Assembly: GCA_003151795.1 (NCBI GenBank)
Contig: PLYL01000006.1
Coordinates: 1-54,300 of the forward strand
Source of the DNA: Candidatus Yanofskybacteria bacterium
Lineage (GTDB): Bacteria > Patescibacteriota > Minisyncoccia > 2-02-FULL-40-12 > GWA2-44-9
DNA length: 54,300 nucleotides
Direction: 5' to 3'
Shown: positions 2,266 to 52,707 of the stretch, in pieces
How the letters are laid out: each line of letters starts with the position of its first letter
Position numbering within the stretch: position 1 is the first letter of the stretch
Notes under the pieces: model-generated
Databases searched by the model: none
What the model was told of the DNA's origin: nothing
The model's input: only the letters and a program-made list of their open reading frames with translations
Position numbers and translations under genes: made by a program

Positions 2266-3138
2266 TTATATTGTTTGTTTATTAATATTATCAAAAGCCA
2301 GTTTATGATATTCTTCCTGAATTTCAATACCAATAGAATTTCTGTCTAAATTGAAGGCAACTATAGATGTTGTGCCCGAACCTAAGAATGGGTCCAAAAC
2401 AGTATCACCAGGCTTTGTAAAAAGTTTAATAAACCATAAAGGAAGCTCTTTAGGAAAGACGGCGCTATGGCTTTTATTAGAGCTTTCAGTTGCCATCAAA
2501 AGTACGTTGGTCGGATATGCTAATTCACGACCAACCCATTTGGAAACATTTTTTCCAAAGCCACTACCAACTCTTGAATTGTCTCTTCGTTTATCAGTTT
2601 CGCTAAGATTTTTTAGTCGACTCTTGGCCCAGTCGCCCATAGGTACCCGTACTTCATCCTGGTACATATTAAAATCTTTTTGTTTATTGAATTGAAGAAG
2701 CCGTTCCCAGGAATCCCGGAAACGGTTAGGCCATTTTCCTGGAAAACAATTTTTCTTATGCCAAATGAACTCTTCTGTCCAAAACCAGCCCTGTTTCCTC
2801 ATTGCCACGATCAGCTCCATAACGTAGGTGTGTCTCTCGCTATTAACAACTTTTTCTTTTATATTCAAAACAAATGTTCCTTTTGGTTTTAATACACGTA
2901 GCAATTCTTTTGTTATAGGTAAAAACCACTCGACATATTTATCAGGGCCAACTCCTCCGTATGTACTTTTCCTTTGATCAGCATAAGGGGGTGATGTAAT
3001 AATTAAATCTACAGAATTATCTTCTAGATTTTTAAGAACATCAAGAGAATCACCGAGAATTATATCGGCTTTTATTTTCGTCCTTGCCTTCTGGTTAAAT
3101 AAGTCGTTTTTTAGGATGGTGTTAATGGTCATGAGCAA
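2266..3138 (-). CDS. DNA methyltransferase, beta-class N4-cytosine/N6-adenine (SPPY type)
   Basis: Motif IV (TSPPYADQR) is near the N-terminus and motif I (DPFLGSGTT) near the C-terminus. The order IV then I defines the beta class. SPPY rather than DPPY leans towards N4-cytosine. Confidence 0.85.
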   Translation of the reverse strand: MLMTINTILKNDLFNQKARTKIKADIILGDSLDVLKNLEDNSVDLIITSPPYADQRKSTYGGVGPDKYVEWFLPITKELLRVLKPKGTFVLNIKEKVVNSERHTYVMELIVAMRKQGWFWTEEFIWHKKNCFPGKWPNRFRDSWERLLQFNKQKDFNMYQDEVRVPMGDWAKSRLKNLSETDKRRDNSRVGSGFGKNVSKWVGRELAYPTNVLLMATESSNKSHSAVFPKELPLWFIKLFTKPGDTVLDPFLGSGTTSIVAFNLDRNSIGIEIQEEYHKLAFDNINKQTI

Positions 3139-6220: not shown

Positions 6221-8551
6221 TTACTTGAGAGCCACCTTTAGCACTTCATCCATCGTCTTCACGAAGAAGAATTTGATGTCGCGTTGGATTTCTTTAGGGA
6301 TATCGATAAGGTCTTTTTTGTTTTCGAACGGCGCGATAACGGTTTTGATGCCGGCCCGATGGGCGGCGAGAACTTTTTCTTTCAATCCGCCGATGCCGAG
6401 CACTTTGCCGCGCAACGTGACCTCGCCGGTCATGGCCACTTCTTTGCGGACAAGACGTTTGAGGAATAAAGAAACCAGAGTCGTGGTAATGGCGATACCC
6501 GCCGACGGACCTTCTTTTTTGACCCCGCCGGACGGCGCGTGCAGATGGATATCTTCCTTGCGCAAATCTTCCTTAACGCCATTGCGCGCGGCGTAGGCCC
6601 GGGCCCACGAGAGCGCGGCTTGAGCTGATTCTTTCATCACGATACCCAGCTGGCCCGTCAAGATTAGTTTTCCGGTGCCCGGCATACGGATGGCTTCGAT
6701 GTTAATCAAGTCTCCGCCGACGGGCGTCCAGGCCAAACCGGTCGCTCGGCCGATTTCATCCTTCTGCTCGGCCACGTCGTAGGTGAATTTAATCGGGCCA
6801 AGATAGGTCTCAATGGCTTCTTTGCCGACGCTGATGGTTTTGGTCGAAGATGATTCCACCAGTTTGCGGGTAATTTTGCGGATAACAGTGGCGAGCTGGC
6901 GTTCGAGCTCGCGGACGCCGGCTTCGCGGGTGTGATTGCGGATGACGTCCATCACCGCCGAGTCTTGGAAAGTTAAACTGCGCTTTTTTAAGCCGTGGTC
7001 TTTGAAAAGCCGCGGCAAAAGGAAATTCTTGGCGATATGGAATTTCTCCTGTTCGGTGTAGCCTGGGAATTCAATAATTTCTAAGCGGTCGCGCAAGGCC
7101 GGCGGAATCGTATCGAGGCGGTTGGCTGTGGCGATGAACAATACATCGGACAAATCAAACGGCACTTCCAGATAATGATCCGAGAAGGCGTGGTTCTGTT
7201 GCGGGTCGAGAGCTTCGAGCAAAGCCGAAGACGGGTCGCCTCGGAAATCCGAACCGACTTTGTCGATTTCATCGAGCATAAAGACGGGATTTCTGACTTT
7301 GGCGGTTTGAATGCCCTGAATCAACCGGCCGGGCATGGCGCCGACATAAGTCCGGCGGTGGCCGCGGATTTCGGCTTCATCCCGCAAACCGCCCAGCGAG
7401 ACGCGGGCAAATTTACGGCCGAGGGCGCGAGCGATGGACTGGCCGACCGAAGTCTTGCCCGTCCCTGGCGGACCGACCAGACAGAGAATCGGGCCCTTTA
7501 ATTTGCCGACTTGTTTTTGGACGGCGAGGTATTCCAGGACGCGTTCTTTAACTTTCGGCAAACCGTAGTGGTCTTCGTTGAGGATTTTCTCGGCTTCTTT
7601 TAAATCAATTTTTTCTTTGGTTTTCTTGGCCCAGGGCAATTCACTCAATAAATCTAGGTAACTGCGGATATACGAACCTTCGGGATTGAAGGCCGGCATC
7701 TTACCCAATCGGCCCAATTCTTTGAGGGCTTTTTCTTGGACGTCTTTAGGCATGCCGGCAGACATAATCTTGGCGCGGATGGAGACCAGCTCGTCTTTCT
7801 CATCATCGACGCCGAGTTCTTTTTCGATGCTCTTTAATTGCTCGCGGAGAAATAACTCTTTCTGCATCTTGCCGATTTGTTTTTTAGTTTCTTTGACGAC
7901 GCTCTTTTCGGTTTCCAGAATCTGGACTTCGCGCGAAAGATACATATTGAGCTGGCGCAAAATATCAAGCATGCTTTCCAGTTCCAGGATGCGCTGCTGA
8001 TTCTCGACTTCCAAATTCAAATTTACCGTCATCAGGCTGGCGATGTGCTCGGTGTCTTTGAGCTGGGACATCATATAAATAATTTCGGGCAGGATGGTCG
8101 GGAAAGAACGGGCTTCGGAAATAACTCGAAATTGCTCAATCGCTCGGCGCAGGATAGCCTTTTCGTCCAGGCTGTCGCGGATAATCAGGGCCATCGGTTC
8201 GGCATTCACCCGCAGAAACGGCTCTTCAGACACAAAGTCAGTAATGCGCGCTCGAACGAGACCTTCAACGTCAATCTTAGAGGAACCGTCGGGCAGTTTA
8301 AAAACCGAAACAATCCGGCCGATGGTGCCAACCTCGAATAAATCATTGCGAGAAATATCGTCTTCGCTATTCTTTTGGGTTACAAAGAGAACGAGCCGGT
8401 TGTGGGCCTGGGCGAATTCCAGCGCCCCGATCGATTTCGGACGCTGAATAATAATCGGGATGACGATCTTGGGGAAGAGCACGGTATTCTTGAGGGCAAT
8501 CACCGGCAATTCCTCGGGGATAATAATGTTGTTGATTTTGAATTCGGACAT
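6221..8551 (-). CDS. lon: ATP-dependent Lon protease (LonA)
   Basis: 776 aa. It has an N-terminal LON domain, the Walker A motif GPPGTGKTS, and a C-terminal protease with the PSAGIA serine motif. Confidence 0.95.
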   Translation of the reverse strand: MSEFKINNIIIPEELPVIALKNTVLFPKIVIPIIIQRPKSIGALEFAQAHNRLVLFVTQKNSEDDISRNDLFEVGTIGRIVSVFKLPDGSSKIDVEGLVRARITDFVSEEPFLRVNAEPMALIIRDSLDEKAILRRAIEQFRVISEARSFPTILPEIIYMMSQLKDTEHIASLMTVNLNLEVENQQRILELESMLDILRQLNMYLSREVQILETEKSVVKETKKQIGKMQKELFLREQLKSIEKELGVDDEKDELVSIRAKIMSAGMPKDVQEKALKELGRLGKMPAFNPEGSYIRSYLDLLSELPWAKKTKEKIDLKEAEKILNEDHYGLPKVKERVLEYLAVQKQVGKLKGPILCLVGPPGTGKTSVGQSIARALGRKFARVSLGGLRDEAEIRGHRRTYVGAMPGRLIQGIQTAKVRNPVFMLDEIDKVGSDFRGDPSSALLEALDPQQNHAFSDHYLEVPFDLSDVLFIATANRLDTIPPALRDRLEIIEFPGYTEQEKFHIAKNFLLPRLFKDHGLKKRSLTFQDSAVMDVIRNHTREAGVRELERQLATVIRKITRKLVESSSTKTISVGKEAIETYLGPIKFTYDVAEQKDEIGRATGLAWTPVGGDLINIEAIRMPGTGKLILTGQLGIVMKESAQAALSWARAYAARNGVKEDLRKEDIHLHAPSGGVKKEGPSAGIAITTTLVSLFLKRLVRKEVAMTGEVTLRGKVLGIGGLKEKVLAAHRAGIKTVIAPFENKKDLIDIPKEIQRDIKFFFVKTMDEVLKVALK

Positions 8552-10820: not shown

Positions 10821-11654
10821 TTATACGATTAACAAAGCGATAACGTAACCAATCAGAGTCATTGTCGCAATCGGAGGCAAGGCCGCCATGGGCTGGCGTT
10901 TGGGCTGGCTGACGAAGATAACATGGGTCAGAAGCAAGCCCAGGAGCGCGAAGCACGCCACGATAATCGCCTCCGGCAATGATTGGCGGACCAAGGAGCT
11001 CACAAAAATTACGGGCAAACCAATATCGCCCGAACCGAGAATCATAAAATCTTGGCCGATGCGATGCTTGGCTTCATGGCGGGAGGCCATAAAGTGCCGA
11101 AAACTCGAAGGGATAATCAACCCGAACACGGCCCCGGAACGAATCATGCTCTCCGCCATCCGGACCATATGCCGGGTCTTATACACGGCGATGATATCGT
11201 AAAAAGACAGCAACACTAAAGCCAGGATGCCGACCGCCGGCGTAATCATGATGCCGATTGCGGCGCCGATGCCGGCAATGGCCAGAATAATCGCTAAATC
11301 GTGCACAATCACGTTATGGACTAGAAGAAAAATCGCCAGAATAAACAAAGCGCCGATAATATCGGTCGGGAATGGCGCCATCGAGGCAATCACAATCTGG
11401 GCGCCGGAGAGGATGATAATCGAGAGAAAAATCCAAAACATCCAGCTCGCTAGCCGAGGGGTCCGGCTAATGAACCAAACGGCGGCGAGGATGAAGGCAA
11501 ACCCGGCCAAGTCCCCGAGGGTGATGGAAGAGGGCTGATAAATTTCAACGCTCGAGAGCAGAAGCACATACCGATAGGCCACGAACAAACCCAGCGCGAG
11601 AGTCGCGCCGAACATCAACGCCTCTTTTAAAAAAAGACTTGGCTGGATTTTCAT
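10821..11654 (-). CDS. presenilin / signal-peptide-peptidase-like intramembrane aspartyl protease (A22-like)
   Basis: Polytopic protein with a YD motif (LLSFYDIIAVY), a GxGD motif (ILGSGDIGLP) and a PAL-like AALPP near the C-terminus. I set the start at ATG 11654 because the track extension is translation of the repeat arm. Confidence 0.6.
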   Translation of the reverse strand: MKIQPSLFLKEALMFGATLALGLFVAYRYVLLLSSVEIYQPSSITLGDLAGFAFILAAVWFISRTPRLASWMFWIFLSIIILSGAQIVIASMAPFPTDIIGALFILAIFLLVHNVIVHDLAIILAIAGIGAAIGIMITPAVGILALVLLSFYDIIAVYKTRHMVRMAESMIRSGAVFGLIIPSSFRHFMASRHEAKHRIGQDFMILGSGDIGLPVIFVSSLVRQSLPEAIIVACFALLGLLLTHVIFVSQPKRQPMAALPPIATMTLIGYVIALLIV

Positions 11655-11791
11655 CCCGCACATAACAAGCACCAACTGCTTAGGCAATACAAATGTTTGT
11701 ATTATCCAAGATTATCAGTGCTGCATGGTTAATATTATTTATATACAGACAGTGACATAATCGTATTGCAAGTGCTCGTTATGTGCGGGAT
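11653..11791 (-). repeat. type-1 palindromic intergenic element, copy 1 (139 nt)
   Basis: Arms 11653-11672 and 11772-11791 pair at 19/20 positions, with G.U at the exception in - sense. The element spans exactly from the stop TAA (11793-11791) to the ATG (11654-11652). Confidence 0.85.
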
Positions 11792-12072
11792 TAGTAATTC
11801 AGCCACGGCCGATCCGGATACTGGTGAATAAAATAGTTGTAGCCTTGGCCGGGCGGGATGGCAATATTATTATCTTTAATCCACTGGGCAATCAGCTGGC
11901 GCTCGGTTGAAGACATCGATTTCACTTGAGTGGCGGACGCGTCAAGGACAATCTGGTCGGAGTCATAGTTTTTAATCGCGATAAATAAAATGCCGGCCAT
12001 AAACATCGCCATCAAAGAAATAAATACCGCGCCCATTCGGGACTCGACTTGCATTGTCAGCGGATTGGTCAT
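11791..12072 (-). CDS. hypothetical small membrane-anchored protein
   Basis: 93 aa with one N-terminal TM helix. No family recognised. Confidence 0.4.
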   Translation of the reverse strand: MTNPLTMQVESRMGAVFISLMAMFMAGILFIAIKNYDSDQIVLDASATQVKSMSSTERQLIAQWIKDNNIAIPPGQGYNYFIHQYPDRPWLNY

Positions 12073-14807: not shown

Positions 14808-15719
14808 TCAGAATATTTTGCGCAATACTTTATATACCAAAAACCAGAAACGGCGGATAGGCATATCAAACGCGCCGGGATATTCGATTTGGCGGCCGCC
14901 CCAGCCGAGTTTGAAGCGGGTAACACCTGGGTACCTCTGTGCATCAATGCCCCAAAAGTCGTAATATTTCATGCCATACCCCTTCGCTGTCTTTATCAGT
15001 TCCCATTGCATTAAGTACGGCGCCATCATCGGTTTGTATTTCGGATTCCGGTCCATCGCGCCGTGCAAATAATATGCCGTATCGCCATAAGCCAGCCATA
15101 TCGCGCCGGCAATCGATGTGCCTTCGTGCTCAACAAAGACAGTTTCTGCCACAATGCCAGTGGTATTGCAGAGTTTTTCGTAATATTCTTTAGAATGGGT
15201 AGAGAAATTATCGTTCTTGGCGGTGTGCTTCAATAATTTCCAAAAAGCATCGATGTCTTTGCGAAAAACAAGTTTCAAATTATTTCTCTCCGCGACTTTA
15301 ATGTTGTATCGGGTCTTATGGTGCATCGCCGCCAATAATTCTTCTTCGGATTTTTCCAAATCCATAATTACCGACCGATGAGGCTGAACTTCTTTGGATG
15401 ATTTTTTAAATCCGGCGCCGTAGAGCAATTCAATGGTGCTATCCTGAAGCGGTTCTATTTTTATAAAAATAGACTTTTGTTCTCGGGCCAGATTTTTTAA
15501 ATATGTAATAAATTTTTCAAGTTCGTTCTTAATCCCACTACCCATTTCATCAAGTTTCAATTCCGGCCCGTGCGGAATATATAAATAATTCATCCCAAAT
15601 GGCAAATCATGCTGGATGATATTGGCGATAACTTTCCCATCGTTATATGAAAAAGTCTTTCTTCCAATAGAACTTTGAAACTTTAACCACTCATCAGATT
15701 GTAGGAAAGACTTTTTCAT
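14808..15719 (-). CDS. FemAB-family peptidoglycan bridge-forming aminoacyltransferase (FemX/MurM-like)
   Basis: 303 aa. The N-terminus MKKSFLQSDEWLKFQSSIGRKTF and the overall length fit FemAB. A GGAG SD lies 9 nt upstream. Confidence 0.75.
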   Translation of the reverse strand: MKKSFLQSDEWLKFQSSIGRKTFSYNDGKVIANIIQHDLPFGMNYLYIPHGPELKLDEMGSGIKNELEKFITYLKNLAREQKSIFIKIEPLQDSTIELLYGAGFKKSSKEVQPHRSVIMDLEKSEEELLAAMHHKTRYNIKVAERNNLKLVFRKDIDAFWKLLKHTAKNDNFSTHSKEYYEKLCNTTGIVAETVFVEHEGTSIAGAIWLAYGDTAYYLHGAMDRNPKYKPMMAPYLMQWELIKTAKGYGMKYYDFWGIDAQRYPGVTRFKLGWGGRQIEYPGAFDMPIRRFWFLVYKVLRKIF

Positions 15720-15756
15720 ATCAAACCGCTCCCGATTTCGCCCAAGCGAAGCTTGG

Positions 15757-16023
15757 CTACGAAATCGAGGATCCTCGATTTTTATTAAATATTAATTTTT
15801 CAATTGCGTTTCTACTTTTCCAGGACTTTATTTGACGTTCACGAGCTATAGCATCTCCTTCGTCTTGAAATTCTTCAACATAGGATATCTTCCACGGTCT
15901 TAAATTTTTTGTTGCAACAACATTTCCTGAATTATGTGCCTTGAGCCTCAACTTAATGTCAGAAGAATATCCTATGTAGTATCTAGAATTTCTATCAGAT
16001 TTCAAGACGTAAGTATAGTACAT
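15757..16023 (-). CDS. GIY-YIG nuclease family protein (UPF0213-like)
   Basis: MYYTYVLKSDRNSRYYIGYSSDIKLRLKAHNSG. Start at ATG 16023. Confidence 0.8.
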   Translation of the reverse strand: MYYTYVLKSDRNSRYYIGYSSDIKLRLKAHNSGNVVATKNLRPWKISYVEEFQDEGDAIARERQIKSWKSRNAIEKLIFNKNRGSSIS

Positions 16024-16039
16024 TGAAAAAATTAATATT

Positions 16040-16117
16040 TTAAAAATCGGGACAGGCCTTCCGCCCAATCGATTTCTGAAATTCTAACCATGCGGCTGTT
16101 TGGAGAAATGACTTCAT
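16040..16117 (-). pseudogene. 5' stub of a second femX-like gene
   Basis: MKSFLQTAAWLEFQKSIGRKA, then CPDF and a stop. 15 of the 21 aligned residues are identical to the N-terminus of ORF 14808-15719, but the DNA is diverged and GC-richer. Confidence 0.55.
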
Positions 16118-20240: not shown

Positions 20241-20311
20241 TTCTCAAAAACGCGCCTAGAAGCGTTTTTGAGAATGGTTTAAAAAACTACCATATGGTAG
20301 TTTTTTAAACC
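20241..20311. terminator. two tandem bidirectional hairpins between convergent rpsT and ftsW
   Basis: TTCTCAAAAACGC/GCGTTTTTGAGAA (20241-20274), followed by a perfect 36-nt palindrome GGTTTAAAAAACTACCAT/ATGGTAGTTTTTTAAACC (20276-20311). Confidence 0.7.
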
Positions 20312-20320
20312 ATTCTGTTT

Positions 20321-21413: not shown

Positions 21414-22478
21414 TTATTTAAATGGCGGGAGTTTGCTGTCGATGAGGAAGAGGACCAGGCCGATAATGGCGCCGATGGCGTTGATCATCCAGAAACGCAT
21501 GGTGATTTGGGTTTCGGGCCAGCCCATGGCTTCGAAGGTGTGGTGAATCGGCGTCGAAGGAAATATTTTCTTCTTCCGGATTTTTTTTGAAATAGTTTGG
21601 AGAATGACCGAGCCGGACTCCATCAAAGGAATAATGGCGATAATCGGCAAGAGCAATTCAGTATTCGTGAGCAACGCCACGACCCCGACCGTAAAACCCA
21701 GGGCCATCACACCGGTATCGCCCATGAAAAACTTGGCGGGATAAATATTGAACCACAGGAATCCAATCAGCGCGCCCATAATCGCAACGAGAAAAATCGT
21801 GAGATCAAAACGGCCCTGGTCAAACGCAATCGCGGCCAGCGCGCCAAAGATAGTGAGAAACACTCCGCCCGATAAACCATCGAGGCCGTCGGTTTCATTC
21901 ATTGAGAATGCTGTGGCAACCATAATAAAAATAAAATAAGGGATGTACCACCAACCAATCGTATATTCTCCCAGAAACGGCACCGTAATCGTCCGAATGT
22001 CGAGCTTAAAATAAAACCACCACGCGCCGATAGCCGCCACGCCAATAAAAAATAACAGGCGCTTGCTCAATTTTAGACCTCCGCGCTTTAAAACACCCAC
22101 CATGTCATCAGCCATGCCGACCAAGCCCGCGAGAATTAAAAAGCCCAATGGGAGCAAGGTCTGGCTTCGGGAAAGAAAATTAATCCGACCCCAGATACCG
22201 CCAAATAAAGTGGCGAGTAACCAGCACCCGAGAGTGATTATCGAAACGGTCAGCCAAATCGGCAAACCGCCCATCGTCGGGGTGCCTTCTTTTTTGCGAT
22301 GGAGACTATTAAAGATGGGTGTATCCGAGCGCTCAATGGCCTTGCCCGGTTTAAAGCGAGTGAACAAAACCTTAGTCCAGAAGTGGGTGATGATGAGATT
22401 TAAAAAGAAGGCCGTCGTGGCAATCACAAACAGCCGGACGACGTTAAATATATTGAGGCTTTCGAGAGGAATCGTCAT
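21414..22478 (-). CDS. mraY: phospho-N-acetylmuramoyl-pentapeptide transferase
   Basis: MGDTGVMALG, NETDGLDGL and other MraY motifs. Start at ATG 22478. Confidence 0.9.
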   Translation of the reverse strand: MTIPLESLNIFNVVRLFVIATTAFFLNLIITHFWTKVLFTRFKPGKAIERSDTPIFNSLHRKKEGTPTMGGLPIWLTVSIITLGCWLLATLFGGIWGRINFLSRSQTLLPLGFLILAGLVGMADDMVGVLKRGGLKLSKRLLFFIGVAAIGAWWFYFKLDIRTITVPFLGEYTIGWWYIPYFIFIMVATAFSMNETDGLDGLSGGVFLTIFGALAAIAFDQGRFDLTIFLVAIMGALIGFLWFNIYPAKFFMGDTGVMALGFTVGVVALLTNTELLLPIIAIIPLMESGSVILQTISKKIRKKKIFPSTPIHHTFEAMGWPETQITMRFWMINAIGAIIGLVLFLIDSKLPPFK

Positions 22479-22615
22479 CCCGCACATAACAAGCACCGAC
22501 TGCTTTAGCAATACGATTGTTCGTATTAACCAAGCTTATCAGTACTGTATGATTAATTATTATTAAATATGCATAGTCCCGCAGTAGTATTGCCAGTGCT
22601 TGTTATGTGCGGGAT
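22477..22615 (-). repeat. type-1 palindromic intergenic element, copy 2 (139 nt)
   Basis: Arms 22477-22496 and 22596-22615 are perfectly complementary (20/20). The element spans exactly from the stop TAA (22617-22615) to the mraY ATG (22478-22476). Confidence 0.9.
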
Positions 22616-23541
22616 TATTGCCAGCGATAGGCCTGCTTGGCCCAAGAAATTAAGTTTTTCATGTCGCCGAAGCGGTCGTGGGAACCAAGAATAATGGCGA
22701 TGATGCGATCGCTTTGATTCGGCGCGTCTACAATCAGAATCATACACCCGAGAGCGCTGTCTGTATACCCGGTTTTTCCACCGACAATATCCGAAAGGAC
22801 GCCTAAAAGCTGATCCGTGCTCTTGATTTCGTGGGAGATTTTACCGTCCGCCGAGACAATCGTCGCGCTGGATTGGCGGGAAAAACTCCAGAGGGCATCG
22901 TAGCGCAAGGCGTAAGCCACACCCTTTACCAGGTCGCTCGCTGTCGAGTAGCCCAGGTCGTTCAGCCCGGCCGGATCGACAAAGTGGGTGTCGTGCATCC
23001 CCAACGCGGTCGCCTTAGCGTTCATCTCCGCCACCAAGTCAATACTATGGCTCGCGGCATAGTCGCGCAGGGCGTAAGCGGCGTCGTTGGACGACTCGAT
23101 GAACATCATCTGCATTAAATCATGCACTGAAAGCGTTTCGCCGGCGTAGAGGTCTTTGCGCTGGCCGTCGACCTCGACTGCCGAAGACTGAACCGTGACG
23201 ATATCGTTGGGACTGAATTTTTCCCAGACCACGACCGCGTTCATGACTTTGGTCAGCGAAGCGATGGATAATTTATCTTTGATATTTTTCTCAAAAAGAT
23301 TGCGGTCGGATTTCACGTCATAGAGGATCGCGGACTTCGCGTCCAAAGGAACTTCATTCGCCGAGGTATCGAGAATGGGCAAATAACTGATGGGCTGGGA
23401 CGGAAAAATAAAAGCCTGATTGTCGTGAAATACCGCGCTCGGCCCATCCAGCGGCGTGCGATAAATCGTAATAAAAAAATAGGCGTTCGCTAACACCAAG
23501 ATTGCGACGACTATTGTCAGGCCGGCCAACTTTCGATCCAT
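22615..23541 (-). CDS. D-alanyl-D-alanine carboxypeptidase (S11, PBP5-like)
   Basis: SIASLTKVM (SxxK), SSN (SxN) and KTGYT (KTG) motifs. There is an N-terminal TM anchor. Confidence 0.8.
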   Translation of the reverse strand: MDRKLAGLTIVVAILVLANAYFFITIYRTPLDGPSAVFHDNQAFIFPSQPISYLPILDTSANEVPLDAKSAILYDVKSDRNLFEKNIKDKLSIASLTKVMNAVVVWEKFSPNDIVTVQSSAVEVDGQRKDLYAGETLSVHDLMQMMFIESSNDAAYALRDYAASHSIDLVAEMNAKATALGMHDTHFVDPAGLNDLGYSTASDLVKGVAYALRYDALWSFSRQSSATIVSADGKISHEIKSTDQLLGVLSDIVGGKTGYTDSALGCMILIVDAPNQSDRIIAIILGSHDRFGDMKNLISWAKQAYRWQ

Positions 23542-23553
23542 GCTTAATTAAAA

Positions 23554-24870
23554 TTAAGGAGTTAATCTATTAAGGTCGCGAGGGAAGAGTATCGCCTCTT
23601 TGACATTGTTTAAGCCGATAGTTTTTTCTACAAACCGATCGATACCAAAACCGCAACCGCCATGAGCTGGAAGGCCAAATTTAAAAGCCTGCAGATAGTA
23701 TTTATATCCTGGGTGTTCCGGGTCAAGCCCAGCTTTAACCATTTGCTCGACAAGCTTTTTGTAATTATTTTCTCGCTGCGGGCATGTGGCAATCTCAATC
23801 CCGCGAAATAACAAATCCGCCCACATGACCGTCGATGGGTCGGCCGGATTTATTTTATGATAAAATTTCATGGCTTGGACTGGGAATTCGGTCACAAAAA
23901 CCGCCTCGCATCCTTTTTCTTTTTTTGCGTGTTCACAAATCCATTTTTCCTCGTCAGGCACGAGATCTTTTTCATGCTCTGTACTTTTCCCTGTCGCTTT
24001 TGAATACATCTCATGAACCTGCGCCACTGTGAATATTGGAAATTTATTTTTTAAAACTAACTGCGGAGCATTTAGACTTTTTAATTCATCCTTAAACTCT
24101 TCATAAGCGCTAGTGAGGGCGTGATAAGTCATGTCTTGAACCATATCAAGAACATCCTGGTGTCCAGAAATAAAGCCCATCTCAATATCAAGCATGGTCA
24201 CTTCGGACACATGGCGCGTGGTGGCGCTTGTCTCGGCGCGGTAAGCCGGCGCGATTTCAAAAACCCGCTCAAAGACGCCGACCATAATTTGCTTGTAAAA
24301 TTGGGGGCTCTGGGCGAGGACGGCCTCTTTTCCAAAATAATCAACCTTGAATACTTCTGCTCCGCCTTCTGTCGCGCCGGCAAGAATTTTAGGGGTATTT
24401 ATTTCTATAAACTCGTTCTTATTTAGAAAATCTCGAATATAACGCTCTAGTCCCGCCCGTATCTTAAAAATTTTACCTTCTTGGACATTCCGCAATCCTA
24501 TCACTCGATATTCAAAAAGAGTATCGAGATTTTCCGAATCATGGCTTAAGGGCTTGTCAATCTCAATTGGCGGCACTTCTGTCACGGGCATATCAATTGT
24601 AATTTTAGGATTATGAATCTCTACTCCATTAGGGGCTCTTTTCTCTTCAACTACCATCCCCAAAACGGTCAGGACTGTACCCTGGTGCAAGCCTTTTAAT
24701 TTTTCAGTTTCGCTAGATTTATCATCCAATATCTGGGTTAGGCCATGCCGATCTCGTAAAACCAAAAAGGTCATCCCGCCAAGTTCGCGTTTCTTATAAA
24801 GCCAGCCCTCAAGCTTTATTTTCTTGCCTATAAAATCCTTGAGCTGTGATGATAGTATTCTCTCCTGCAT
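23554..24870 (-). CDS. aspS: class IIb aminoacyl-tRNA synthetase, most likely archaeal-type aspartate--tRNA ligase
   Basis: 438 aa with an OB-fold N-terminus, motif 2 (YRAETSATTRH) and motif 3 (GGCGFGIDRFV). I cannot separate Asp from Asn specificity by eye. Confidence 0.7.
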   Translation of the reverse strand: MQERILSSQLKDFIGKKIKLEGWLYKKRELGGMTFLVLRDRHGLTQILDDKSSETEKLKGLHQGTVLTVLGMVVEEKRAPNGVEIHNPKITIDMPVTEVPPIEIDKPLSHDSENLDTLFEYRVIGLRNVQEGKIFKIRAGLERYIRDFLNKNEFIEINTPKILAGATEGGAEVFKVDYFGKEAVLAQSPQFYKQIMVGVFERVFEIAPAYRAETSATTRHVSEVTMLDIEMGFISGHQDVLDMVQDMTYHALTSAYEEFKDELKSLNAPQLVLKNKFPIFTVAQVHEMYSKATGKSTEHEKDLVPDEEKWICEHAKKEKGCEAVFVTEFPVQAMKFYHKINPADPSTVMWADLLFRGIEIATCPQRENNYKKLVEQMVKAGLDPEHPGYKYYLQAFKFGLPAHGGCGFGIDRFVEKTIGLNNVKEAILFPRDLNRLTP

Positions 24871-28267: not shown

Positions 28268-29575
28268 TTAAACAGTTGGAATTCCGGCCGGGGCTTCGCC
28301 TTTCTTGGTTTCGATGCGGGGCAAGGATGGCGTCTTCACGCCGACGTCGGGCACATGAAATATGGTCGTCAATTCTTCGGTATTCAAAACCAAAGGCTTA
28401 TCGGGGAAGGCGCGTTCTCGATAGCGTTTATATATTTTTTTCTTATTTTTTAAGGCTCGAACGGCTTTATTGAAGCCCTTGGTGATATCAGTCGAAATGC
28501 CCGGCTTGAAACCATTGAGAGCCTGAGTGGCGAATTGTTTGAACGCGCCGGCGACACTGCGCATCCGACCGTCGTCATATTTATCGAGCGGAGCGATATA
28601 AACCATCCGAATGCCGGCTTCAAAGGCTAGTTTGGCCGTGCCTTTTTCAATTGTTTTAACTATCTCCTGAATGCCAGGGTTGAGTTGATTGAATGGTTTG
28701 TCTTCTTTCTTTTTTTCTTCCTTTTTATCTTTTGGTTCGGCCGGCTCATAAATCGCGCCGGCGACGGAGCGGGCGCCGCCCTCAATGCCGGCAAAGACCG
28801 AATCGGCAAAATTTGTCTTTTTCTTTTCTTCTCGGCCCATCAGCTTGTCCACGGCCGGCTGGCCCTTTTTAACCCAGGCGTCCCCGGTCGAGCGGGCCAA
28901 AATCTGGATTCCGAAAAATTCCGAGAGACCCAGCGCGCCCAAAGTCTCGGCAATCGGGGCCAAAGGGTCAATCCGGCGGACGTCGTCTTTACCGGCGCCT
29001 TCTTCCTCAAATTCCGGATAGGTCTTGATGGGGAAAATATCTTCTTTGATGAAGACCAATTCGAGGGCGTTGACATTGACCTCGCCGTAAGACAGCGCGG
29101 CCGGAAAACGCGACATGTAATCCGCCACTGGCGTTAATTCCGATTCGGGATATTGGGCGTAAACCTGGGCTTCGACCAAACTTTTATACTTCTCGATGGC
29201 TCGAATGTAAAAATGAATCTCTCCGCCCGAACCGACCATTTCCAGCGCGAGCCAGTCCGGCACCTTGCCTTTAAAGAAGGCGTCCCGCCATTTTTTATAT
29301 TTTTCCCAGAGATTTTTGGCGGGCGACGATTGCCCGACGACGTGAAAGCCGGCGAAAATCTGCTCCATCGCCTTTAAGCTCTTATGGGCGTCAATGGGAA
29401 TCTTGAGCTCATAAGTAATCCACTTCAATCCGGCCTTGTAGACTTTTTTATTGTATTCCTTAAGCGCTTCCGCGTAGACGAAAATGAGGATGATGGGCGC
29501 CCAAAGCCACCAGTAGGCAAACATGAAACCCAAAGCCGTCCAAGTCGAGCCCAGGGTGTTTAGGATTGGATCCAT
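28268..29575 (-). CDS. membrane-anchored hypothetical protein, operon partner of the ATPase
   Basis: 435 aa starting at ATG 29575, with an N-terminal TM segment and a KKEEKKKEDK linker. Its stop lies 2 nt before the ATPase start. Confidence 0.5.
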   Translation of the reverse strand: MDPILNTLGSTWTALGFMFAYWWLWAPIILIFVYAEALKEYNKKVYKAGLKWITYELKIPIDAHKSLKAMEQIFAGFHVVGQSSPAKNLWEKYKKWRDAFFKGKVPDWLALEMVGSGGEIHFYIRAIEKYKSLVEAQVYAQYPESELTPVADYMSRFPAALSYGEVNVNALELVFIKEDIFPIKTYPEFEEEGAGKDDVRRIDPLAPIAETLGALGLSEFFGIQILARSTGDAWVKKGQPAVDKLMGREEKKKTNFADSVFAGIEGGARSVAGAIYEPAEPKDKKEEKKKEDKPFNQLNPGIQEIVKTIEKGTAKLAFEAGIRMVYIAPLDKYDDGRMRSVAGAFKQFATQALNGFKPGISTDITKGFNKAVRALKNKKKIYKRYRERAFPDKPLVLNTEELTTIFHVPDVGVKTPSLPRIETKKGEAPAGIPTV

Positions 29576-29710
29576 CCCGCACTTAACGAGCATCTGGCTT
29601 CTAGTCTCGCTCATCGTCTATGACGATATGCGCGCCAATGCTTATTATATTATATACAATATCTGGATACGCCATCACTTTAGAGACTAATGCTCGCTTA
29701 AGTGCGGGAT
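29574..29710 (-). repeat. type-1 palindromic element, copy 3 (137 nt, diverged)
   Basis: Arms 29574-29593 and 29690-29710 pair with one bulge. A second stem is TAGTCTC (29602-29608) / GAGACTA (29683-29689). The element ends at the ATG (29575-29573). Confidence 0.8.
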
Positions 29711-29748
29711 CCATTATGCTATTAGTATACTCCTTCCTAACATTACAT

Positions 29749-29775
29749 CAAAAGAGGCCTGGCGGGCCTCTTTTG
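29749..29775. terminator. hairpin terminator downstream of ORF 29785-30849
   Basis: CAAAAGAGGCC, a 5-nt loop, GGCCTCTTTTG. Confidence 0.6.
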
Positions 29776-29784
29776 ATGTGGAAG

Positions 29785-30849
29785 TTATTTCTTGAGATTA
29801 TAGGTGCCGTCAGGATTCTTCGTAAAAGTTTTGGAATCCTGAAGATTGAGCAAGATGGTATTTTCTTTGACCATGCGGGCGTCTTTGACTTTGGCCATCA
29901 GCGCGGCTTTCGCGAGAGGCTTATTCGAGGATTTGAGAATATCGACGAGCACGTCTTTGACGGTCCCGGCGCGATAACCCCATTCGGATAAGGCGTACAT
30001 TCCGCGGCCGACGAGGATAAAGCGGTCGTCTTTGATTAATTCATTATGGACGGTCTGGATGTTGGCTTTCTTATTATTGAAGCCGGAGGCGTTAATCAGG
30101 GACGCGATATCGCTGAAGTGCTGGGGCTTGGTGGATTTCTTAAGGACCAAGAAGGCTTTATCGCGGACGCCCTTGGGTTTGATTTCGGACCAGGAAGCCA
30201 AGCCGACTTCGTTGAAGATATTAGTGCCTAGATTCTTAGAAACGGCCATCACGAGATTAATGTCGGCTTCTGACAGCGGCTTCCCGCTCGTCGAAAAACT
30301 CGGCACGGCGTGTTTCTGGGCCAAGAAAGCAAAATCGGAATTAGAAACGACGCGGCCGGCTTTTTCCAGAACTTTGATTAAAGAATCGGTCGTCGCGGTG
30401 AAGGAAGCCAGGGTCGCGTTATCGACGGCCCAGAAAGAATTGAAATCATCGTTCTCCGGAGAACGGGCCAGCTCGTTGCTCAAGGTTAAAAGAAAGACCA
30501 GCGAACTGTTATTGATACTGTCGCTATCGCTGCCGCTGAAAGATTTGAAAAGGTCGCGCTCTTTGATGACGCCGCCGCGTTCATTCAAAATATCGCGGGC
30601 CAAAACGATGTAGCGCTTCACGTCCGGATGGCCGGCGGCGGCGAGACGGAGCTGGGCCAGGGTTGATTCCTCAATCTGGCGGACGCGTTCGCGGGTAATG
30701 CTGTAGGAAGCGCCGATGGACTCCAGGGTTTCTTTCTGGCCTGTTTTCAAGCCAAAACGGCGGGAGATGATGTCCTTATTGCGAGCCGAGGTGTTCTTAA
30801 GCAAATCGGCGACGGTTTTTTTGATATTGACTGATGTATTGGTGGCCAT
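29785..30849 (-). CDS. DNA-binding protein with an N-terminal sigma-70 region-4 HTH and a C-terminal HARE-HTH-like domain
   Basis: LESIGASYSITRERVRQIEESTLAQLR matches region 4. HFSDIASLI...VHNELIKDDRFILVGRGMYALSEWGY is HARE-HTH/delta-like. Confidence 0.55.
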   Translation of the reverse strand: MATNTSVNIKKTVADLLKNTSARNKDIISRRFGLKTGQKETLESIGASYSITRERVRQIEESTLAQLRLAAAGHPDVKRYIVLARDILNERGGVIKERDLFKSFSGSDSDSINNSSLVFLLTLSNELARSPENDDFNSFWAVDNATLASFTATTDSLIKVLEKAGRVVSNSDFAFLAQKHAVPSFSTSGKPLSEADINLVMAVSKNLGTNIFNEVGLASWSEIKPKGVRDKAFLVLKKSTKPQHFSDIASLINASGFNNKKANIQTVHNELIKDDRFILVGRGMYALSEWGYRAGTVKDVLVDILKSSNKPLAKAALMAKVKDARMVKENTILLNLQDSKTFTKNPDGTYNLKK

Positions 30850-33659: not shown

Positions 33660-33715
33660 GCCCGCGACGGCGCGCACCAAACGAGGTGCCCGTCGGACGC
33701 GGGCACTTTGTTTTT
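33660..33715 (+). terminator. conserved 18-nt 3' box plus intrinsic terminator (copy 1)
   Basis: GCCCGCGACGGCGCGCAC (33660-33677), then GTGCCCG, a 7-nt loop, CGGGCAC and TTTGTTTTT. Confidence 0.7.
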
Positions 33716-33759
33716 ATCTGTGCTCAAAAGTGTCCGTACGGACACTTTTGAGCACAGAT
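33716..33759. promoter_or_regulatory. perfect 44-bp palindrome (operator-like or cruciform)
   Basis: ATCTGTGCTCAAAAGTGTCCGT (33716-33737) is the exact reverse complement of ACGGACACTTTTGAGCACAGAT (33738-33759). Confidence 0.8.
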
Positions 33760-33779
33760 CAATCGAGAGATTCTTTTTC

Positions 33780-52584: not shown

Positions 52585-52648
52585 CGCGGGAGATAAATTA
52601 AGACCTTATAGTAACACGGATAACGCTTACTTTCTAGAATGATTTATA

Positions 52649-52690
52649 ATCTAAAACCTCTCCGACAATATCGTCGGAGAGGTTTTAGAT
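52649..52690 (-). terminator. perfect 18-bp hairpin downstream of ORF 52708-53697
   Basis: ATCTAAAACCTCTCCGAC, a 6-nt loop, GTCGGAGAGGTTTTAGAT. There is no clear U-tract. Confidence 0.5.
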
Positions 52691-52707
52691 TAAGTTAACC
52701 TTAACTG

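Follow-up and report, generated by a model that had tools for sequence, protein, structure and literature searches.

A hairpin-forming element flush against the mraY start codon in a Candidatus Yanofskybacteria genome, probably a non-autonomous copy of a mobile-element family of Patescibacteria

Introduction

Palindromic repeats of 100-160 nt that have terminal inverted repeats and no open reading frame (ORF) include ERIC in enterobacteria, Correia/NEMIS in Neisseria, and RUP and BOX in pneumococcus. They lie in transcribed intergenic regions, form long mRNA hairpins and show presence/absence polymorphism, and ERIC copies are unusually conserved between species. The subject of this report is a 139-nt sequence, called copy 2, that occupies the junction of the genes dac and mraY in a 54,300-nt stretch of DNA from Candidatus Yanofskybacteria bacterium (GenBank assembly GCA_003151795.1, contig PLYL01000006.1, positions 1 to 54,300); this whole stretch is referred to as the window. 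The sequence is quite probably an ORF-less, non-autonomous copy of a hairpin-forming mobile-element family that is widespread among the ultra-small Patescibacteria (candidate phyla radiation, CPR). As co-transcribed hairpins, the MITEs (miniature transposable elements with inverted repeats) of the ERIC and Correia type are its functional analogues. Those duplicate TA and occur in both orientations and at varied positions, whereas the present family stands flush with start codons in a single orientation, with a duplication of about 4 bp that includes the TG of ATG, and has its ends in common with a GIY-YIG mini-element and not with a DDE insertion sequence (IS).

IS200/IS605 elements and REP/RAYT systems resemble the family in their hairpin-defined ends, in strand- and orientation-specific insertion beside a short target word, and in having abundant ORF-less hairpin derivatives. 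They depend on the HUH/Y1 enzyme class, of which no gene was seen here, and IS200/IS605 elements are without terminal inverted repeats or duplications, whereas the ends of the present elements pair with each other and duplications are common. The free-standing GIY-YIG homing genes of the seg type of phage T4 are similar in that a GIY-YIG gene is wedged between conserved operon genes and is patchily present. Proteins of the seg type, however, are about 200 aa or longer with DNA-binding domains, and inverted-repeat ends, ORF-less derivatives and target duplications are absent from them.

The closest published system is formed by the Ssn proteins, small single-domain GIY-YIG nucleases that cut single-stranded DNA (ssDNA) beside the hairpin repeat NTS (CGTCATTCCCGCGMAVGCGGGAATCYRG); the ssn genes are flanked by NTS, an arrangement that the authors term IS-like, and the SRM pattern is given as HGTCWYN(0-2)YYVSBRHN(0-5)WNVSBRGN(0-2)RNCYNB (Chenal et al. 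2025, Nat Commun, PMC11893778). The likeness lies in a small single-domain GIY-YIG gene bracketed by an associated repeat, in hundreds of ORF-less intergenic copies, in the directionality of the repeat (in NTS and here), and in the base of the hairpin, which is (T)TCCCGCG...CGCGGGA(A) after CGTCAT in NTS and (T)CCCGCAC...GTGCGGG(A) after [G/T]TCAT in the present family (CGTCAT at copy 2). On the gene-antisense strand the base thus reads [G/T]TCAT-CCCGCAC...GTGCGGG-AT. By eye, the + strand of copy 2 (CGTCATCCCGCAC) fits the 5' half of the SRM pattern, and ATCCAT of copy 3 (see below) fits its RNCYNB. The full pattern does not match copy 2, with a loop of 99 nt as against 0-5 nt and a 3' half that fits only partly. 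NTS is furthermore about 28 nt long with a 3-nt loop, and a complete hairpin stands on each side of ssnA, whereas the two ends of the present elements together make up one long hairpin, each forming half of it, with about 100 nt of AT-rich sequence or a whole ORF enclosed. Target duplications, placement at start codons and empty sites are not described for NTS. A full-text literature search yielded no paper that describes GIY-YIG units with inverted repeats or, in CPR bacteria, MITEs at start codons, and the family appears to be undescribed so far.

Scans and definitions

Paired termini were scanned for with the pattern CCCGCACWTAA-N(98-128)-TTAWGTGCGGG in one genome per species and in metagenomes. 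Comparison loci are designated L and proteins P, each with a number. A start codon was counted as abutting the element when it lay 0-2 nt from a terminus and opened an ORF that had at least 60 codons or ran off the locus.

The element at the dac-mraY junction

The features of the junction are as follows.

22477..22615, minus strand: copy 2, a 139-nt ORF-less hairpin element with 95% identity to its subfamily consensus.
22596..22615, minus strand: 5' arm in the mRNA sense, AUCCCGCACAUAACAAGCAC, which begins at the terminal A of UAA (22617-22615), the dac stop codon.
22477..22496, minus strand: 3' arm in the mRNA sense, GUGCUUGUUAUGUGCGGGAU, which ends on the first two letters, A and U, of the mraY start codon (22478-22476).
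22510..22527, minus strand: local hairpin AATACGA-TTGT-TCGTATT on the gene-proximal side, AAUACGA-ACAA-UCGUAUU as mRNA.
21414..22478, minus strand: mraY (NCBIfam TIGR00445, 199.7 bits), start codon flush with the element; orthologues P0002-P0120.
22615..23541, minus strand: dac (NCBIfam; peptidase S11, D-Ala-D-Ala carboxypeptidase/endopeptidase family), whose TAA abuts the element; PF00768 is found in the syntenic genes.

The core CCCGCAC...GTGCGGG extends over 22479-22613 and is flanked by a T...A closing pair, with an A/T outside it. In minus-strand (gene-strand) reading the junction is ...CAA TAA T-CCCGCACATAACAAGCAC...GTGCTTGTTATGTGCGGG-ATG ACG..., or TAA-T-CCCGCAC...GTGCGGG-ATG in short, from the dac stop at 22617-22615 to the mraY ATG at 22478-22476. 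The initial annotation had described a second 139-nt copy that runs exactly from the one codon to the other, and these coordinates hold. It was also right that the arms 22477-22496 and 22596-22615 are complementary at 20 of 20 positions (99 nt separate them) and that copy 1, a further copy in the window, has an identical left arm. Equally as described, a second GTATTGC lies at 22587-22593 on the + strand, where as GCAAUAC of the 5' arm it competes with the local hairpin at 22510-22527, and the internal-loop motifs CUAAGCAGUUG and UAAAGCAGUCG are present in copies 1 and 2.

The RNA of copy 2 has a predicted folding energy of -60.1 kcal/mol (z = -8.9), and by this model the element almost certainly forms a hairpin in the mRNA. 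The predicted fold pairs the A and U of the mraY AUG within the terminal helix, their partners being the next U after UAA and the last A of UAA itself. The stem is followed directly by AUGACG, with no U tract. In Rfam searches the whole window gave only tRNA at the gathering threshold, and the element itself, at E values up to 10, gave chance-level matches (best E = 0.79). A consensus scan for an internal promoter of the downstream gene yielded nothing consistent on the gene strand of the three copies in the window.

An in-frame ATG inside the 3' arm (22487-22485) was taken by the gene caller as the mraY start, and the called MraY (P0001) accordingly begins MCGMTIPLES, whereas MraY orthologues begin at the flanking ATG. 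An asnB-like gene is mis-started likewise inside a 3' arm (L116:3255) and begins VFMCGMCGI... Called N-termini of the forms MCGM... (mraY) and VFMCGMCGI... (asnB-like) are thus false and arise from the ATG of the 3' arm.

Further copies in the window and the element family

The window holds two other copies.

11653..11791, minus strand: copy 1, same subfamily as copy 2 and about 80% identical to it.
29574..29710, minus strand: copy 3, a divergent subfamily with the termini CCCGCACTTAA..., at the start of a DUF8128 gene (28268-29575).

Copy 1 has the TAA of a 93-aa ORF (11791-12072) on one side and, on the other, the start codon ATG of a presenilin/SPP-like gene (10821-11654). Its arms (11653-11672 and 11772-11791) are 95% complementary, and its RNA fold has an energy of -57.5 kcal/mol (z = -8.05). 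Copy 3, which was missing from the initial annotation, was recovered by a search with the 14-nt terminus; the exact 14-nt terminus is confined to the arms of copies 1 and 2 in the window. A nhmmer search of the window revealed no further degenerate copies.

Paired termini were detected at 41 loci in the genome scan and 64 loci in the metagenome scan. The hosts are nearly all Patescibacteria (Yanofskybacteria, Uhrbacteria, Sungiibacteriota and metagenome-assembled genomes labelled only as unclassified 'bacterium'); one host assembly is labelled Gammaproteobacteria, and its MraY is 54% identical to that of the window. The few matches in other phyla look like chance or unrelated palindromes. No match to the paired-termini pattern was found in the viral contigs scanned (0 matches), and no similarity to plasmids was found. 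Across public data there are 89 distinct sites; this 54-kb window has 3 copies. The ends of the family are [T/C]CCCGCAC[A/T]TAA...TTA[A/T]GTGCGGG[A/G]; the terminal stem measures about 19 bp and varies among subfamilies in its inner part, where complementarity is nonetheless kept, and the interior is asymmetric and AT-rich. Features typical of MITEs were seen, namely terminal inverted repeats, small ORF-less size, many copies and empty orthologous sites.

A start codon abuts the element at 57 of the 89 sites. When copies were oriented by the gene and the interiors matched to the nearest relative, 45 had the same orientation, none the opposite one and 12 were ambiguous. Insertion in one orientation with one end flush against the start codon is thereby shown. 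The genes downstream are functionally unrelated and include mraY, the presenilin-like gene, the DUF8128 gene, the asnB-like gene and many others.

Two side observations concern the neighborhoods of copies 1 and 3. Gene order around copy 1 differs among genomes: the window (10821-12072) and L026 have the 93-aa gene, the element, the presenilin-like gene and a beta-CASP gene; L092 has the 93-aa gene, the element and the beta-CASP gene; in L107 (20262-20600) the 93-aa gene overlaps the beta-CASP gene (TAATG); and in L113 (18274-20951) the presenilin gene is present and the 93-aa gene is not. Rearrangement at the element may have taken place. Upstream of the DUF8128 gene (window 29716-29800) a -10-like TATACT box lies only 9 nt before the left ATG and is kept in the empty orthologues L107 and L109; this suggests that the DUF8128 mRNA is leaderless or near-leaderless. 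The preceding gene encodes a sigma-70 region 4 / HARE-HTH fusion protein and is followed by a terminator-like 18-bp hairpin (29743-29781).

Evidence for insertion

Direct repeats of at least 4 nt flank the element at 46 of 81 sites and contain the start codon at many of them. Bases 4-6 of the repeat covary between its two copies (ATGGAAT/ATGGAAT, ATGCAA/ATGCAA, ATGAAA/ATGAAA). The sites take the forms ATGAA-T[core]ATGAA, ATGGA-T[core]ATGGA, ATGGAAT[core]ATGGAAT and ATGCAA-T[core]ATGCAA and, in the Uhrbacteria-type class, TATG-C[core]G-TATG; sites other than start codons carry the duplications TTGA, TTAT and GTGTA. With the closing pair (T...A or C...G, itself covarying) assigned to the element, duplications have a mode of 4 bp, and the usual ones of about 4 bp are TGAA, TGGA or TATG. 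Since a 4-bp duplication of this kind includes TG, which joins the last A of the element, the ATG is rebuilt intact.

Empty counterparts of the sites are present among the comparison loci. At the copy-3 site, the junction in L107 reads tatactaaagacataATGGATtta, with ATGGAT once, as against tatactaatagcataATGGAT[core]ATGGATcca in the window, where ATGGAT stands twice (29709-29714 and 29570-29575 in minus-strand reading). The copy-1-type junction behind the 93-aa gene is TAATG in L107 and TAAT[core]ATG in L092. Between dac and mraY there is a spacer of just 1-15 nt in L106, L107, L109, L111, L113 and L114; the junction reads TAAatATG in L106, whose MraY is 87% identical to that of the window, and TAAtATG in L113 (86%), and the corresponding MraY identities are 86% for L114 and 81% for L107. 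For L112 (MraY 90% identical) only 13 nt of contig precede mraY, and the element is absent from them. Filled dac-mraY junctions are confined to the window, L012 (Yanofskybacteria bin-277) and L080.

Empty orthologous junctions and duplications together indicate insertion, and they argue that the element is a mobile-element insertion and not a locus-specific RNA motif. In the initial annotation a look at sister genomes had been proposed as the check; relatives have a short conventional spacer between dac and mraY, so copy 2 was inserted. A very recent insertion with target-site duplications had been named there as the outcome that would speak against selection on RNA. Insertion, and duplicates in the family at large, are borne out; recency is not demonstrable, and copy 2 has no duplication of its own.

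Larger relatives that carry a GIY-YIG gene

Following up unpaired termini in the comparison loci revealed elements that have the same ends and measure about 290-310 nt. Inside each there is one ORF of 81-86 aa, co-oriented with the host genes, and nothing else. The units are the following.

L100, 8396-8684: CCCGCACATAAACACTAT...ATAGTGTTTATGTGCGGG, placed between the TAA that ends an ORF of at least 256 codons and the ATG that opens a 215-aa ORF.
L035, 6206-6499: TTGA-C-CCCGCACCTTTTTAGGAT...ATCCTAAAAAGGTGCGGG-G-TTGA, with a TTGA duplication.
L027, 2481-2793: a unit of 313 nt that sits in an RNase P RNA gene, at the P3 position.
L116/L117: at the start of the asnB-like gene, duplication ATGTG(T).
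L118: at the start of the same asnB-like gene, without duplication.

The ORF starts 2-3 nt past the 5' end of the unit in L100, L116/L117, L118 and L035 and about 50 nt past it in L027, and its stop codon lies inside the 3' end. The only Pfam match is PF01541, the GIY-YIG catalytic domain (E = 2e-12 to 9e-19); the nearest solved structure is the UPF0213 protein 1zg2 (E = 0.003). With the ORF-less copies these units share the ends (7-13 terminal nucleotides), the placement and the 4-bp duplication, and the L100 unit is placed exactly as copy 2 is, with TAA on one side and ATG on the other. Besides start codons, the insertion targets of the family include a -35 box and the hairpin tips of RNase P RNA.

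In L035 (6190-6700) the right-hand TTGA is the -35 box of a TTGACA-17-TATAAT promoter-like site, and the gene downstream of this site has an ORF-less copy on its ATG (6566-6693), which places two family members within 400 nt. The class-A RNase P RNA gene at L027:2440-3240 (Rfam RF00010, 169 bits) likewise carries two elements of the family. An ORF-less copy at 2881-3000 forms the P12 helix (ACCGC-CCCGCAC...GTGCGGG-GUAAGGGUGAAA). The true 5' strand of P1 (GCTTGAGTGAGTC) lies upstream of 2481 and pairs with GACTCACTTGAGC at the 3' end of the gene, so that the 313-nt unit, which stands between the P1/P2 5' strands and AGGAAAGTCCGGGC, occupies the place where P3 belongs. Read in this way, L027 would be a confirmation that family elements are tolerated inside RNAs.

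The window itself has an 88-aa GIY-YIG gene at 15757-16023 on the minus strand (PF01541, E = 7e-19). It is bracketed by a different, AT-rich 20-nt inverted repeat (arms 15781-15800 and 16027-16046), and the region 15757-16046 may represent a second family with the layout of ends, nuclease and ends.

Covariation of the stem

In the initial annotation the placement of the copies and an apparently compensatory change in the local hairpin had been taken as signs of selection on an RNA structure. An alignment of copies 1 and 2 has differences in 28 of 139 columns, 6 of them among the 78 paired columns and 22 among the 61 unpaired ones. One pair (columns 94/101) has changed in compensated fashion from A-U to G-C, two changes retain a wobble pair and two disrupt pairing. 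The compensated pair is real; at least one such pair is expected by chance with P = 0.08, so that compensation between the two copies is not beyond chance, and L026 and L080 carry the uncompensated A.C state. Among 14 copies of the subfamily, columns 94/101 are G-C in 8, G.U in 2, A-U in 1, A.C in 2 and A.A in 1. The RNAalifold covariation term of these 14 copies is -0.16 kcal/mol, and double changes were counted at 7 pairs versus 4.9 expected, a number reached in 50 of 500 shuffles.

Covariation of the 19-bp terminal stem is strong when the family is taken as a whole (79 distinct arm pairs). Stem positions 12-18 have three to four Watson-Crick pair types each and are paired in 86-94%, and over positions 12-24 the Watson-Crick fraction is 0.604 versus 0.387 (maximum 0.432) when partners are shuffled. 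The mispairs at positions 12-18 are symmetric between strands, with 17 G.T on the gene-sense strand versus 19 A.C, and the summed folding energy of 66 copies is -3123 kcal/mol in sense versus -3091 kcal/mol in antisense. As a test of RNA-level selection, neither the mispairs of the family nor the folding energies revealed a sense-strand excess of G.U. Because of this symmetry the covariation fits terminal inverted repeats or ssDNA hairpins equally well, and RNA is not singled out. Selection on RNA structure at these junctions is not supported, given insertion at sites that are empty elsewhere, strand-symmetric mispairs and weak covariation in the subfamily. The assertion that the copies are not random palindromic debris is sound, in view of the z-scores of -8.9 and -8.05. 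Flush placement does recur, and substitutions avoid the stems.

Weighing of the explanations

Several observations weigh against the view that copy 2 is a mobile-element insertion of this family. Copy 2 lacks a duplication: its site, TAA-T[core]ATG, shares with the far flank only the palindromic AT, which is indistinguishable from the element's own ends. A secondary loss of the duplicate, or a second mode of insertion, must therefore be assumed. Such sites number 13 with copy 2 included, and the TAA stop abuts the element in 8 of the 13. The interiors of the ORF-less copies have no homology to the GIY-YIG units, and no GIY-YIG element with CCCGCAC termini is present in the 54-kb window. GIY-YIG enzymes are hydrolytic nucleases for which strand transfer is not known, and it is DDE transposases that classically leave terminal inverted repeats together with a short duplication of fixed length. 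Finally, the identity of about 92% between copies at the dac-mraY junction, as against 46-55% at the 4-fold degenerate sites of dac, could reflect host-level purifying selection and hence a function.

As to the missing duplicate, the elements L046:962-1100 and L103:24-162 are 97.8% identical and lie at the same junction. L046 has cctaatATGCAAT[core] with the upstream duplicate ATGCAAT, and L103 has cctaat[core], with exactly those 7 nt gone and TAA-T[core] left. Comparison of the two indicates that the upstream duplicate can be lost. An origin of TAAT from ATGAAT by point mutation was ruled out, as empty and filled alleles have the dac TAA at one and the same codon position. Descent of the ORF-less copies from GIY-YIG forms by simple internal deletion was rejected on the missing interior homology.

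As to conservation, the three dac-mraY copies are about 92% identical (90-92% in their central parts), and at 4-fold sites dac is 46-55% identical among the filled lineages and 32-37% between these and L106. This pattern, with the identity of the copies, fits one old, slowly evolving insertion. Copy 2 and the non-orthologous copy in L092 are 92.8% identical, however, and the copies in L080 and L092, at different junctions of seemingly one organism, are 97.1% identical. The case for purifying selection from orthologous identity is weakened, since non-orthologous copies are equally similar and a paralogous pair reaches 97%; ongoing copying, homing or gene conversion is an equally good reading.

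That the hairpin is a cis-acting RNA selected by the host, or an old insertion exapted as one, which sets mraY translation, mRNA stability or RNase III-type processing to a near-leaderless mraY message, is judged unlikely, although several points are in its favor. The element is flush with UAA and AUG and takes the A and U of the AUG into its terminal helix, orientation to the genes is strictly constant, substitutions between copies 1 and 2 avoid paired columns, and the conservation at dac-mraY in three lineages includes the center of the element. The helix-extending copies in the RNase P RNA gene are transcribed and folded in at least one RNA, and empty junctions without a Shine-Dalgarno-like sequence suggest coupled translation of mraY. 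These points are countered by the functionally unrelated downstream genes, the missing sense-strand excess of G.U, the A.C intermediates at the sole compensated pair together with weak subfamily covariation, and orthologous copies that are no more alike than non-orthologous ones. The ORFs that run upstream from the duplicated ATG end variably and give no conserved coupling frame, no Rfam family matches and no internal promoter is consistent. The strong hairpin between two genes could alternatively be an intrinsic terminator, and an integron attC site, a REP/BIME repeat or a chance palindrome might also be considered. To this group almost no credence is given: it is already refuted by the missing U tract with AUGA directly following (a terminator scan was empty at the element), by the lack of a cassette array or integrase in a locus whose flanking genes are housekeeping genes, by a length of 139 nt with conserved interior and ends across some 80 sites, unlike the 20-40 nt of REPs, and by fold z-scores of -8 to -9 with a multi-genome distribution. 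The resemblance of CACTTAAC and GTTAAGTG in some subfamilies to the R'' and R' boxes of attC is stem-internal and partial.

An ordinary MITE moved by a DDE transposase encoded elsewhere, with the GIY-YIG genes as cargo or hitch-hikers, accounts well for terminal inverted repeats of at least 19 bp, for duplications with a mode of 4 bp and for presence/absence polymorphism. In the ISfinder family table, CC termini and duplications of 4-5 bp belong to the IS1380 family, and GIY-YIG nucleases are not known to act as transposases. Even so, this explanation is thought improbable, as no transposase gene bracketed by the family termini occurs in the fetched loci and at least four independent units of termini, GIY-YIG gene and termini stand at different kinds of site with the ORF exactly filling the space; published Ssn genes are bracketed alike by their own target hairpins (PMC11893778). 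Spread by intronless homing, in which cleavage of the empty allele by the nuclease is followed by repair that copies the element in, with gene conversion refreshing the copies, is distinctly improbable. It would give the stop-abutting sites without duplication, and is in keeping with the GIY-YIG nuclease of the larger forms, with near-consensus copies in diverged genomes (97% between L080 and L092), and with the patchiness of the filled junctions (window, L012, L080) among empty ones in L112, L106 and L113/L114, whose MraY are 90%, 87% and 86% identical to that of the window. Most sites nevertheless have duplications and unrelated genes, which demand true transposition, the higher 4-fold identity among filled lineages than versus L106 fits a single ancestral insertion, and an 84-aa single-domain protein is without an obvious domain for binding a long DNA site.

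Proposed mechanism

The preferred explanation, that copy 2 is a non-autonomous member of the mobile family, can be extended to a mechanism. Chances are about even that the GIY-YIG protein, or a relative acting in trans, mobilizes both the ORF-less and the GIY-YIG forms. By analogy with the action of Ssn nucleases on NTS, it would recognize the base of the hairpin, probably in ssDNA. In the operon the dac-mraY copy would be co-transcribed and, according to the folding model, looped out as a hairpin of about -60 kcal/mol. Looping out would set the UAA beside the AUG, with a terminating ribosome next to the restart codon, and mraY translation by re-initiation or coupling would thus survive the insertion. 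Complementarity of the stem would be kept mainly by the element's own need for paired ends and not by host regulation.

Empty junctions (TAAatATG and similar) are without a Shine-Dalgarno-like sequence, which suggests that mraY may be translated by coupling even without the element. A designed coupling through an upstream ORF that begins at the duplicated ATG was rejected, as stop positions and frames are variable; these ORFs, which encode MPRT* in the C...G class and MNPAHN... (6-52 aa) in the T...A class, are not conserved.

More tentatively, and with a little less than even confidence, these features may define a minimal and hitherto undescribed kind of mobile element. It would comprise an autonomous unit of about 290 bp (18-19-bp inverted ends and an 81-86-aa GIY-YIG gene) with abundant ORF-less derivatives, and would combine recognition of the hairpin base, strand-specific insertion at start codons directed by this recognition, rebuilding of the ATG and a looped-out hairpin.

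Other features of the window

The aspartyl-tRNA synthetase encoded at 23554-24870 belongs to the non-discriminating, archaeal type (NF003483, 460 bits). Every relative examined has in the syntenic position a 463-aa synthetase that shares only about 27% identity with it, and the enzyme of the window looks like a non-orthologous replacement in situ. Three perfect or near-perfect palindromes of 23-25 nt without spacer are found at 20271-20316, just past the ftsW stop codon, at 33713-33762 and at 52647-52692. All three are unrelated to the element in sequence and may be terminators or protein-binding sites. A 24-nt inverted repeat at 15645-15721 is 92% complementary, its arms being the first codons of a gene that starts at about 15718 (ATGAAAAAGTCTTTCC...) and coding sequence 30 nt downstream.

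Implications

In CPR genomes, copies of the family interrupt assemblies and make intergenic regions appear larger than they are. For the biology of mobile DNA, landing on start codons in a fixed orientation with regeneration of the ATG is a route for a parasite into genomes that have almost no intergenic space. If the proposed mechanism is true, the looped-out hairpin lets even essential operon genes tolerate an insertion, and GIY-YIG (Ssn-like) nucleases would be the engine of a class of transposons, which would explain repeats of the NTS/dRS3 type. Should the GIY-YIG link hold, nucleases of the Ssn type would gain a natural role in mobilizing hairpin elements, and the pairs of enzyme and hairpin could serve as ssDNA tools. 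With the mraY AUG directly after a hairpin of about -60 kcal/mol and no Shine-Dalgarno sequence, re-initiation or processing in Patescibacteria becomes testable.

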